Origin: Escherichia phage ECO103 4-12-1
Sequence record: OR844650
Direction: 5' to 3' (one strand)
Length of the DNA stretch: 64,000 bases
Shown: positions 54,733-60,774 of the stretch, one piece after another
Position numbering within the stretch: position 1 is the stretch's first letter
Layout of the letters: the number at the start of each line of letters is the position of its first letter
The notes under the pieces: model-generated
Seen by the model: the letters and a program-made list of their open reading frames with translations, nothing else
Told to the model about the DNA's origin: nothing
Databases searched by the model: none
Program-made: the position numbers and the translations under genes

Positions 54733-57462
54733 TTATTTCCAACGTGTACCTGGACCTGATGGTACACCAGTACTGGCAGGTATCGCTGAACCACGTTTCG
54801 TTGTACTTGGACGATATGTCAAAAAACGAGTTACTTTTTCTGTATCAATTGAAGTTATTCCTGAAGTTCCAGTAACTATCTTACCAATGTAAGTGCTAGT
54901 TAAAGATTCATCAATTGTTTCAGTACTAATAACATATGACGCTTTCTTAGTATTCCTGTTCATTTGTATATACAAATAGAACGTAGTATTAGCTGGATTA
55001 CTTTTTACAGTACTTAAATCAACACTTTGTATAGGTAGTCTGTCGAAAATTCCACCTAAAAACACCGGAACTTCACGTGTAAAGTACACTGAGAATCCTT
55101 GTGCAACGTCTTGTGATACTACCACAATCTTTTCTTTAACGCTACCATTTCCACTAATTAAACCATCCATTTCAGCAGATGTTGTACCAAAAACGCTGAA
55201 TACAGATTTGGTTTGATAGTCAGAATCTTGAAAATTGTAATATCCAAAACCAACACCAGGAATAACACCATGTTGATATGCTGCACCAAGTTGGATGTAA
55301 CTAGATGATAAAAAACGATTTGATGTTATGACACCATCTACTGTTTTAGCTATCATCATCTTAAATTGTGCATTACCTGGTTGTGAAAATTGATGAACAG
55401 CATCAACACCAATGTAACCAAATCCTGAATATTTTGCAACTGTTAGACCAGTACAACGTTTCATATATGCTTCAGTAATAATTCCTGTAACAGAACTAAG
55501 TGTCTCATATCTAGTACTCACCAATGTAGCTGAAGTTATGTTAGTTCCAGATAATACAACATCAACTTCGGCATAGATTGCATAACCTTGGTTATTGTTA
55601 AGATTATATGCTGAAACTACTGCGATGGATCTAGAAAAAGTATTATCAGGTACATAATATAATACAATTTGTCCAGATAGTGTACCAACAATGCCAGAGT
55701 TTCCTAGATTAGCAAAAATATCTTGTTTTAATGATTCTAATACCGTTGGTTCTATTGTATATGTTTCATCAAATTCTAAAGTATCTGGGTTTAATAATCC
55801 ACCACTTGTTTTATATACACCTTCAATGAATGATGTTCCATAACATCTAACACTACCATCGGTATCAACAAGAGAAATCATAGCAGTGTATGTAAAATCA
55901 TCGCCTATTTGTTTACGATTAGATTGTGGTGCAAAACCATTTAATGTAGTATTATTTTGAACTGAGTTATATTGATATGTTGGTTGTGAACCTATTTCAG
56001 AAAAAACAGTATTATTATAATTATATGTTACATCATCATACGTACCAGAACATGCTAATAATATTTTTCTATTATCGATGAAACGTACACCTAAAAGGTT
56101 TGCACCAACAGCACTACCAAAAACTGGTAAAACGTTTGCATTTATAACGTTACTTGCGGTTCTAGTACTGGCAACCCATGAATCAAACGGTGTACCACTA
56201 ACCTTATATCGTTGTAGACCATAAAATTCAGTTGAACTCCATCTAAATTTAGATGCAAATACCAAACCATCTTTAGTTTGACATAAACCACCTGCGTTTC
56301 CTAATACACCAGCAGCAGTTGTCCCTGTGAAGTTGACCATATCAATTTCAAATGGGTTAGAAACTTGAAATCCATTATTATATGAAACAGTTGCAGGTGC
56401 ACGAGCACTACCATCTAGTGACATAGATTTTGAGTTTATATTATAAACAAAACTGATTCCAGTACCATAAACTGTTGAAATATACAAAGGTGTAACCATT
56501 CGATGTGTTGGATATAAAGTTACACGTATTTTTGATAAATCAGGACTAACGTTGGCTTGAATGTTAAAGTCTGTATAGTCTGAAAATTCTACACGTGATA
56601 CTGGTGATGTAACTTCGAATAATGAATCCGAGCTAGTACCAACACTATATAATTTATCGAACACTCTTATGTTATTAGATGCAGAATAACTTGTGTTTCG
56701 AACAGTTTGACCTGATAACCCAGTAACTTTTGTTAATGATGTCATTGAGCTTGCTTTCACATCACTTAGCTCTACTGTATAAATTGAAAGTGCTAATCCT
56801 AAATTAGAAACACTTTTATCTTTACACCAAATATAAACCTTTGTCCCAACAATATGTGTATATATTGGCATATCATTACCAAAAGAAGTACTTGGCACTT
56901 TAGCATGAATATGTGATATTTCGTTAAATGTGCCATTGGTTATAGTAAAAATATAATTATCTTCAGTACTTAAACATCCAAGCATCTCATAACCATTAGA
57001 GCCAATAAAATACTTAATATTTTCAGTACTACTCATAATTGAAGGTTTATACATTGAATTGGTTGAAATAACACTTTCTTGTGAAATCATAGTTATATTT
57101 CGGAGTTCTCGTATAAATGAATAATAAAAACCTTTAGTACTACCATTGGTTCCGCTACGCAGAACAACGGCGGTTCCATCATCTTCAATAATTGTTGGCT
57201 GAACTACTTGGTCACTTGACATAGGTGTAGCACCTTCATACGACCCACTTACGTTTAATGGTAAGTAATCCATTTCTCCTACACGTGATATAGGCAACAT
57301 ATCTAAAATACTTTGAACTTCTGAACGCTTATATATTGGATATTGAACAATTCCAGTATTGGCATTCGGTGAGGTTCCATTAAAAGTACGCATAGCGTAC
57401 CTTTGTCCAATTGCCAAGTTCCCAAGGATCTCGGCACTTCCTATAATTCGTTTTGATGACAT
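54733..57462 (-). CDS. large virion structural protein (paralog family, conserved C-terminal module)
   Basis: Track start 57552 lacks an RBS and overlaps the upstream gene; ATG at 57462 has AAGGAAAAG and aligns with the paralog N-terminus. Confidence 0.6.
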   Translation of the reverse strand: MSSKRIIGSAEILGNLAIGQRYAMRTFNGTSPNANTGIVQYPIYKRSEVQSILDMLPISRVGEMDYLPLNVSGSYEGATPMSSDQVVQPTIIEDDGTAVVLRSGTNGSTKGFYYSFIRELRNITMISQESVISTNSMYKPSIMSSTENIKYFIGSNGYEMLGCLSTEDNYIFTITNGTFNEISHIHAKVPSTSFGNDMPIYTHIVGTKVYIWCKDKSVSNLGLALSIYTVELSDVKASSMTSLTKVTGLSGQTVRNTSYSASNNIRVFDKLYSVGTSSDSLFEVTSPVSRVEFSDYTDFNIQANVSPDLSKIRVTLYPTHRMVTPLYISTVYGTGISFVYNINSKSMSLDGSARAPATVSYNNGFQVSNPFEIDMVNFTGTTAAGVLGNAGGLCQTKDGLVFASKFRWSSTEFYGLQRYKVSGTPFDSWVASTRTASNVINANVLPVFGSAVGANLLGVRFIDNRKILLACSGTYDDVTYNYNNTVFSEIGSQPTYQYNSVQNNTTLNGFAPQSNRKQIGDDFTYTAMISLVDTDGSVRCYGTSFIEGVYKTSGGLLNPDTLEFDETYTIEPTVLESLKQDIFANLGNSGIVGTLSGQIVLYYVPDNTFSRSIAVVSAYNLNNNQGYAIYAEVDVVLSGTNITSATLVSTRYETLSSVTGIITEAYMKRCTGLTVAKYSGFGYIGVDAVHQFSQPGNAQFKMMIAKTVDGVITSNRFLSSSYIQLGAAYQHGVIPGVGFGYYNFQDSDYQTKSVFSVFGTTSAEMDGLISGNGSVKEKIVVVSQDVAQGFSVYFTREVPVFLGGIFDRLPIQSVDLSTVKSNPANTTFYLYIQMNRNTKKASYVISTETIDESLTSTYIGKIVTGTSGITSIDTEKVTRFLTYRPSTTKRGSAIPASTGVPSGPGTRWK

Positions 57463-60774: not shown

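Follow-up and report, generated by a model that had tools for sequence, protein, structure and literature searches.

The 64,000-nucleotide stretch of Escherichia phage ECO103 4-12-1 that we analysed (sequence record OR844650; hereafter the window) carries three consecutive genes on its minus strand, downstream of nrdG, which we call A, B, and C (Table 1). The window belongs to an Asteriusvirus, a jumbo coliphage of the PBECO4 group, and is 99.7% identical to slurp01. The 7.5 kb around the trio are 99.3–99.7% identical to slurp01, PBECO4, phAPEC6, JP4, and other Asteriusvirus (99.4% in JP4 and 99.6% in phAPEC6 for the region of the trio), and the genomes of these relatives range from 310 to 383 kb. 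Nearly all Asteriusvirus records (PBECO4, 121Q, phAPEC6, JP4, and others) label the three products 'hypothetical protein'; in the EJP2 record, gene A carries an automatic 'minor tail protein' label. We describe below the homology, predicted architecture, and evolution of the trio, and the role in the tail that these suggest.

The three genes are paralogous. A and C align over their full length with 28% identity (BLASTP, E = 2e-63), the last ~120 aa of B are 43% identical to C (E = 6e-24), and the last ~125 aa of B are 36% identical to A (E = 9e-17). These comparisons bear out an initial annotation of this DNA, made from the letters alone, in which the three genes were placed at these coordinates and proposed to be related. 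Among the shared blocks it quoted, VVSQDVAQGF.VYFT occurs in A as well as in C, A contains LLRSGTNGS unchanged where C reads VLRSGTNGS, and the common C-terminal motif is readily seen in B and C and has diverged further in A (KRSRLDIFGASLESAGSSFPVSYGLPSQTGTINW). It had missed a further similarity, between residues 1–85 of B and the N-terminus of A (34% identity, E = 4e-7). B thus matches both ends of A, i.e., it consists of the N-terminal and C-terminal pieces of a large paralogue minus the central ~700 aa; we refer to forms with and without this central part as headed and headless. The identity between A and C follows the same division: it reaches 45% in aa 41–120 and 48–57% in aa 741–870 (48% across aa 761–870), and is lowest in the core between them (Table 1). 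C most likely starts at the ATG at 57462 rather than at the GTG at 57552 given by the open reading frame (ORF) lister: the ATG has an AAGGA ribosome-binding site 8–9 nt upstream, the G17 and JP4 annotations and the database for JP4 mass spectrometry let the gene begin there as well, and a start at the GTG would overlap B. BLAST of A, B, and C found no further paralogue among the ORFs of the 64-kb window and no significant similarity between the trio and the window's other tail-fibre genes. The first ~20 residues of one of the latter, the 1841-aa tail-fibre ORF at 7616–13141 (+), MYSIKTDLDITGAGTVGK, loosely resemble B-type and A-type N-termini (MAYKIRADLKAMQQVTVQGK, MSKKIYGGLDVTHNVTVNGK); a docking motif common to this fibre and the N-termini of A and B is conceivable, the BLAST match being not significant and the likeness anecdotal.

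Table 1. Positions of the three genes, their segments, and the flanking signals in the window.
Feature	Position	Strand	Remarks
Gene A	58078-60774	-	898 aa; first paralogue; low-copy virion protein
Gene B	57479-58066	-	195 aa; headless paralogue
Gene C	54733-57462	-	909 aa; third paralogue, architecture as A; low-copy virion protein
A, segment for propeller core	58465-60522	-	most variable part, 21–26% identity to C; proposed receptor-binding head
A, segment for C-terminal module (beta-sandwich and tail)	58081-58464	-	from alignments and the model of A
C, segment for C-terminal module	about 54736-55113	-	from the alignment with A and B
Terminator-like hairpin and T-run between nrdG and A	60829-60847	-	consensus scan; upstream boundary of the A-B-C unit
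Terminator-like hairpin, 10 bp stem, T-run	54705-54728	-	directly after the C stop; downstream boundary
ATAAATAC motif	60808-60815	-	34 nt upstream of the A ATG; candidate late-promoter element

The trio is part of a larger family of jumbo phages. A and C match the profile phrog_3573 (3.7e-274 and 6.3e-267) and, at about 1e-36 each, phrog_7449, and B matches phrog_26864 (4.4e-115); all three PHROGs are annotated 'unknown function'. To our knowledge, no fold had been assigned to these families, and a headless paralogue had not been reported in them. A hidden Markov model (HMM) of the family matches SPN3US gp168 (E = 1.7e-33) and EL gp114 and gp115 (about 1e-45), and the family occurs in EL, SPN3US, and Erwinia jumbo phages. 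A profile search of 1.84 billion representatives found the C-terminal module in 426 clusters (E up to 1e-3). The best 148 of these include 78 of at least 850 aa and 62 of at most 260 aa, i.e., short forms make up about 40% of the family's cluster diversity. Almost all short forms in this set begin with Met (59/62), and a Trp lies within the last four residues in 129 of the 148 clusters.

The short forms carry at least three unrelated fibre-like anchors at their N-termini: one like that of B, a coiled coil with an 'NPH' motif, and an Mtd_N-like 'GE(I/L)xxNxxDxKLYxKD'. Many keep a 'P-x-S-x-Y-G' strand immediately before the sandwich, and one 2488-aa family protein holds the whole arrangement twice. 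The N-terminal and C-terminal pieces behave as one cassette. Short and long forms also adjoin each other elsewhere: Xanthomonas phage Xoo-sp14 encodes proteins of 241, 978, and 971 aa (short-long-long), and two metagenomic contigs pair the forms in tandem (short-long-short in a 205-kb contig, short-long in the other). These tandem pairs of headless and headed forms in other jumbo lineages were recorded at loci L018 (2534-7606), L014 (8983-15654), and L017, where the short forms bear classical tail-fibre N-termini (Mtd_N-like or with the 'NPH' motif).

Searches with A, B, and C in Pfam (E up to 1) gave nothing relevant, only noise, and PDB sequence searches with single proteins and profiles gave nothing useful (noise such as BLIP-II, E = 0.5). 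The architecture is provided by predicted structures. The AlphaFold2 monomer model of A, built from an alignment of 34 homologues, is all-beta (pLDDT 86, pTM 0.79). Its residues ~85–770 form about 13 four-stranded antiparallel sheets, which we read as two beta-propellers, and residues ~775–870 make up a beta domain of their own. Model confidence is low for the first ~40 and the last 27 residues, the last 27 being among the most conserved. The model matches tandem-propeller proteins in Foldseek, e.g., Utp, DPP4, and sialidases; such matches fix the fold class of the core and leave the choice between lectin and enzyme undecided. A is thus laid out as an N-terminal anchor with the 'P.S.YG' motif (aa 1–65), a twin beta-propeller core (aa ~85–770), a shoulder-like beta-sandwich (aa ~771–870), and a conserved tail ending in W (aa 871–898). 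In B, the N-terminal anchor (aa 1–65) is joined straight to the shoulder-like beta-sandwich (aa ~75–170), which is followed by the W-ended tail (aa 171–195).

The model of B, based on an alignment of B orthologues and full-length paralogues, has a helix at aa 49–58 and a beta-sandwich at aa ~62–166 with pLDDT of about 90 (over aa 70–165), and a tail (aa 174–195) with pLDDT below 50. Its best structural match is the receptor-binding protein (RBP) of lactococcal phage p2 (score 9.7, 122 residues aligned), followed by the long tail fibre of cyanophage A-1(L) (8.2), the phage 1358 RBP (7.6), SPP1 gp22 (7.3), the HFTV1 tail fibre gp42 (7.0), TssK (6.6), a phi812 baseplate protein (6.0), and Mtd (4.9). 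After these baseplate proteins of phages, type VI secretion systems, and injection systems, the scores fall to about 3. These proteins have in common the 'shoulder' domain, with which siphophage RBPs trimerise and dock on the baseplate and which was inherited by TssK; SPP1 gp22 is a stand-alone shoulder domain. The predicted module has the helix and the beta-sandwich of the RBP/TssK shoulder fold. Since nearly all of the structured part of B (helix and sandwich) aligns to the p2 RBP, the N-terminal piece and the C-terminal module probably form one shoulder-like domain, and the propellers of A and C would be an insertion into it.

These results lead us to favour, with a confidence a little above even, an explanation in which A and C are low-copy tail proteins with a shoulder docking domain and propeller heads, and B is their headless partner in the same assembly. 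It draws on homology, domain order, selection on B, the presence of A and C in virions, and synteny, as shown here or in the cited papers; from these we infer trimer formation, location at the baseplate, binding of carbohydrate, late timing, and the role of B. A, B, and C would form a single late operon of paralogous tail proteins, each beginning with a short fibre-like N-terminal anchor and the conserved 'P-x-S-x-Y-G' strand, and each ending with the predicted ~100-aa beta-sandwich and a ~25-aa conserved tail rich in Gly, Pro, and Ser with a terminal Trp. The N-terminal helix and strand would build, together with the C-terminal sandwich, a shoulder-like domain for trimerisation and for docking to the baseplate. 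A twin beta-propeller of ~700 aa would interrupt this domain in A and C, between its two halves; it would be the fast-evolving, host-facing part, which probably binds and possibly cuts surface carbohydrate. B, devoid of propellers, would be kept by selection as a shoulder-only subunit and most likely still fills a docking position beside A and C, where it would serve the assembly as spacer or structural partner.

Published proteomes place A and C in virions. Tandem mass spectrometry of phAPEC6 virions (ESI-MS/MS) detected gp323c, the equivalent of A (98.6 kDa), with 4 unique peptides and 5.6% coverage (PMC7247149), and JP4 virions contained both A (JP4_233) and C (JP4_235), with 2 peptides and 2% coverage each (PMC12648861 supplement). 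The label-free abundances of A and C in JP4 (1.8e6 and 2.3e6) are near that of the 2129-aa tail fibre JP4_305 (4.3e6) and about 50-fold under that of the sheath (1.2e8), which indicates a low copy number. The homologue SPN3US gp168 was identified as a tail 'baseplate/fiber protein' from the proteomics of mutant particles (PMC5105663). The duplicated structural family proposed in the initial annotation is thus supported by the virions of phAPEC6 and JP4, with further backing from this published tail protein. In the phAPEC6 record (MK817115), the locus 6700-10080 is the counterpart of window positions 54733-58066; B and C are unannotated there, apart from a 114-nt 'gp322c' inside C, and the C ORF is intact (tblastn, 100% coverage). 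Being without annotation, neither B nor C could appear in the published phAPEC6 virion proteome. The 'structural protein' labels of CBB gp148 and gp149 had been considered as mass-spectrometry evidence and were dropped, as the two proteins are absent from Table 4 of the CBB paper.

Several points weigh against this explanation. A and C come from whole-virion proteomes, a tail location has been published solely for their relative SPN3US gp168, and no experiment puts A, B, or C on the baseplate. Mass spectrometry gives slight support, at 2–4 peptides per protein, and the CBB mass-spectrometry table lists none of the three copies of that phage. B is not among the 49 virion proteins of JP4, which is weak evidence: non-detection says little since B has 5 usable tryptic peptides of 7–30 aa, against 29 in A and 36 in C. 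The peptides of B include AMQQVTVQGK, QIPSFIGGYLYK, and FSTYRPSVTQK, and its C-terminal peptide is GSSFPVSTGKPSETGTIGW. On the structural side, the assignment of the shoulder comes from the model of a predicted monomer, the way in which the N-terminal helix of A packs on its C-terminal sandwich is deduced from the model of B and from the behaviour of the cassette, and the conserved tail is predicted to be disordered. The Pfam and PDB searches did not connect the sequences to RBP or TssK families, no conserved site for catalysis or sugar binding was recognised in A or C, and the domain order of A and C differs from that of every characterised RBP of the shoulder-neck-head type. Finally, in the neighbour-joining tree of the C-terminal module, B forms a separate clade (94%) whose sister group is not settled.

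The absence of B from the JP4 list, in spite of its presumable inclusion in the search database, could also mean that B helps in assembly without being part of the virion: a small protein with the same oligomerisation module, it would act for a time as template or chaperone for the trimerisation or baseplate docking of A and C and then leave. We consider this unlikely, at about one in five. The B gene lies between two large ones, a frequent arrangement for tail-fibre assembly proteins, and short forms always adjoin long forms. Against this, the non-detection is uninformative, given that A and C themselves yielded 2 of their about 30 peptides each. There is no Pfam match of B (E up to 1) to Tfa/gp38-type or other tail-fibre assembly or chaperone families, and its PHROG is of 'unknown function'. 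B has also kept the fibre-like N-terminal anchor, and the equivalent gene of sister genera is a full-length family member. The short forms found elsewhere with classical tail-fibre N-termini (NPH, Mtd_N-like) suggest, moreover, that such proteins are incorporated into the particle.

A second possibility, to which we attach a similarly low probability, concerns the propeller cores of A and C, which may be depolymerases or glycosidases, the trio then degrading surface polymers in the manner of tailspikes. This would be compatible with the explanation that we favour.

It is less probable, and in our view rather doubtful, that A and C are the whiskers or decoration fibres of the 'hairy' phages phAPEC6 and CBB, with the module as their anchor on sheath or capsid. 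The authors of the phAPEC6 study expected the fibres at three sheath rings and on the capsid hexamers to be among the unannotated proteins (PMC7247149), and A is one such phAPEC6 virion protein without an assigned function. Yet the whiskers are thin filaments of about 119 nm, whereas the predictions for A and C show globular propellers and about 50 aa that look like fibre sequence, and fibres on about 270 hexamers would be abundant, unlike A and C in JP4. The family is also present in EL, SPN3US, and Erwinia jumbo phages, and gp168 was published as a tail protein (PMC5105663).

The initial annotation described the C-terminus as chaperone-like. The corresponding hypothesis is that the module is an intramolecular chaperone auto-cleaved after folding, as in endosialidases and certain tail fibres, and that B is a free copy of it. 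Its C-terminal position and its conservation across the paralogues are in line with this idea, which we nevertheless regard as very improbable: the module has no Pfam match to Peptidase_S74, fibre assembly, or any other family, its predicted beta-sandwich matches the shoulders of RBPs and TssK, it is internal to the chain in SPN3US gp168, in the 2488-aa protein, and in a 1287-aa protein of locus L018, and B carries the N-terminal piece too.

The comparison with other phages suggests how the headless gene arose. CBB (Pectobacterium), fHe-Yen9-04 (Yersinia), and a metagenomic relative encode three long paralogues of about 900 aa just after nrdG. The middle gene is short (195–202 aa) in all the Asteriusvirus examined, and G17, Ecwhy_1, A4, EJP2, and a metagenomic contig with a B of 46% identity preserve the succession long-short-long. 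Both ends of B match the middle long copy best (CBB gp148, E = 4e-11 and 2e-30), and B shares a 5-residue insertion with the middle copy of a metagenomic relative (P0048) that the A-type and C-type proteins lack. The neighbour-joining tree of the 125-aa C-terminal module has a well-supported clade for the first position (97%), a weakly supported one for the third (42–74%), and one for the middle long copies (52%). As this tree gave no sister for B, the origin of B from the middle copy rests on synteny, best hits, and the shared indel. B looks, from these sequence comparisons, derived from the middle paralogue through the loss of its propellers in the Asteriusvirus ancestor.

B is functional and under purifying selection. 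Its dN/dS (Nei-Gojobori) is 0.10 relative to G17 and 0.19 relative to Ecwhy_1, values comparable to those of A and C, with dS up to about 1.2. A decaying, functionless remnant of a deleted paralogue, one of the options of the initial annotation, would fit the correspondence of B to the long gene of the sister genera minus its middle ~700 aa and is nearly inconceivable in the face of this selection, of an ORF that is intact throughout the genus down to 46% identity, of a ribosome-binding site of its own, and of the large share of short forms in the family; a decoy, another of its options, is conceivable. The trio as a whole diverges fast: relative to phage A4, the identity is 54% for A, 41% for B, and 51% for C, against 81% for nrdG and 87% for the nucleotidyltransferase. 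Relative to G17, the operon is a recombination mosaic (dS of 0.50 in A, 0.02 in B, and 0.08 in C). Such divergence and mosaicism are typical of host-range genes. Compared with EJP2, A is 75% identical and C 44–45%.

The proposed arrangement has partial precedents. SPN3US gp168 and the members of PHROG 3573, 7449, and 26864 are true sequence homologues of A, B, and C. Unlike A and C, gp168 is a protein of 1727 aa to which about 560 residues are added on the N-terminal side and 300 on the C-terminal side, and the module lies within its chain. The p2 RBP and TssK have the order shoulder, neck, and C-terminal head, whereas in A and C the propellers (aa ~85–770) stand upstream of the sandwich, which is followed by a tail of 25–28 aa. 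As the fold resembles a shoulder and the sequence and order do not, the module would work like a shoulder without being a member of the RBP or TssK families. SPP1 gp22 has no sequence similarity to B, comes from a siphophage of a Gram-positive host, and does not explain B.

The closest conceptual precedent is the phiKZ gp131–gp135 set, i.e., tandem paralogues with a common attachment domain. These proteins, which include the 110-aa gp132, form hetero-hexameric tail-fibre bases at the baseplate's periphery, and the C-terminal beta-propeller of gp131 is thought to touch the host (PMC13250141). The authors of the SPN3US study tied gp168 to gp131 (PMC5105663). The shared domain in phiKZ is N-terminal and helical, unlike the module of A, B, and C. 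Homology of the family to phiKZ gp131, gp145, or gp146 was considered and rejected (hhalign probability of 0.2–0.7%), the family HMM had no match in phiKZ 122–200 kb, and gp131C was not among the top structural matches. Propellers also serve as the carbohydrate-binding heads of baseplate RBPs in the Staphylococcus phages phi11 (Gp45) and P68 (PMC4901313). Those are single five-bladed propellers with another architecture and other hosts, and have no sequence link to A or C. On the basis of sequence comparison and predicted folds, the trio would thus belong to a known kind, the receptor-binding and baseplate proteins of phages, and what may be new is the fold annotation and the headless paralogue.

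The organisation of the locus is consistent with a single expression unit. The spacers within the trio are 11 and 16 nt, each gene has its own ribosome-binding site, and the G17 record annotates terminators at the places that correspond to both hairpins in Table 1. The sequence ATAAATA[AC], found 28–50 nt upstream of virion genes that include those for the tail sheath and the tail tube, looks like an element akin to the T4 late promoter that is avoided elsewhere in the window: WTAAATAM has 20 matches in the window against 41 expected, and TATAAATA occurs once in the 64 kb, upstream of A at 60809-60816 (-), against 11 ± 3.3 expected. This suggests that A, B, and C are co-expressed late with the tail genes. 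Besides A, elements of the ATAAATA[AC] type were recorded at 32955, 29881, 26169, 14030 (+), and 3203. A scan for sigma-70 promoters inside the operon gave fewer matches than expected from shuffled sequences and is uninformative.

If the architecture holds, it may extend to a more general cassette common to jumbo phages of several lineages, in which the propeller head sits inside a shoulder of the TssK/RBP type instead of following it, the Trp tail is an interlocked neck-like stub in the trimer, and the headless copies are obligatory blocks that join the headed paralogues in a single hetero-oligomeric module of the baseplate, in the manner of phiKZ gp131–135. We put this forward tentatively, as an idea that is more likely wrong than right; if true, headless copies would set the number and geometry of the receptor-binding heads. 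Fast-evolving, mosaic, of low copy number in virions, and predicted to combine a conserved docking module with propellers like those of lectins or glycosidases, A and C stand out as prime candidates for the receptor-binding proteins of Asteriusvirus, i.e., for the determinants of host range, and thereby to the host-range genes of the PBECO4-type Asteriusvirus, which are therapy-candidate jumbo phages. A fold-level annotation is now available, as a prediction, for at least 426 clusters from jumbo phages of Escherichia, Salmonella, Erwinia, Pectobacterium, Yersinia, Pseudomonas, Xanthomonas, and Aeromonas. That headed and headless forms recur side by side is a testable feature of baseplate construction in jumbo phages and would guide the fitting of the baseplate density of phAPEC6 and 121Q, and the architecture marks where heads could be swapped to engineer host range.

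The neighbourhood of the trio has features of its own. Directly downstream of C, at 53065-54665 (-), lies a second tandem trio of small paralogues (188, 173, and 169 aa; similarity E of 9e-15 and 4e-4) with the common motif 'TD.DR..L...KY.LSK', preceded by a near-consensus sigma-70-like promoter (TTGACG-17-TATAAT, 54716-54688). The EJP2 annotation has no genes of ~170–190 aa after C, a comparison of annotations rather than of homology. Beyond the nucleotidyltransferase gene, the window encodes at 49481-51246 (-) an HNH-endonuclease-like ORF (218 aa), a 139-aa acidic ORF, and two small ORFs of 102 and 124 aa, lipoprotein-like and membrane-protein-like, that are possibly spanins. Near that point, phAPEC6 has instead the 105-kDa 'tail fiber' gp314c, and these different ORFs show that gene content varies here between nearly identical Asteriusvirus genomes.

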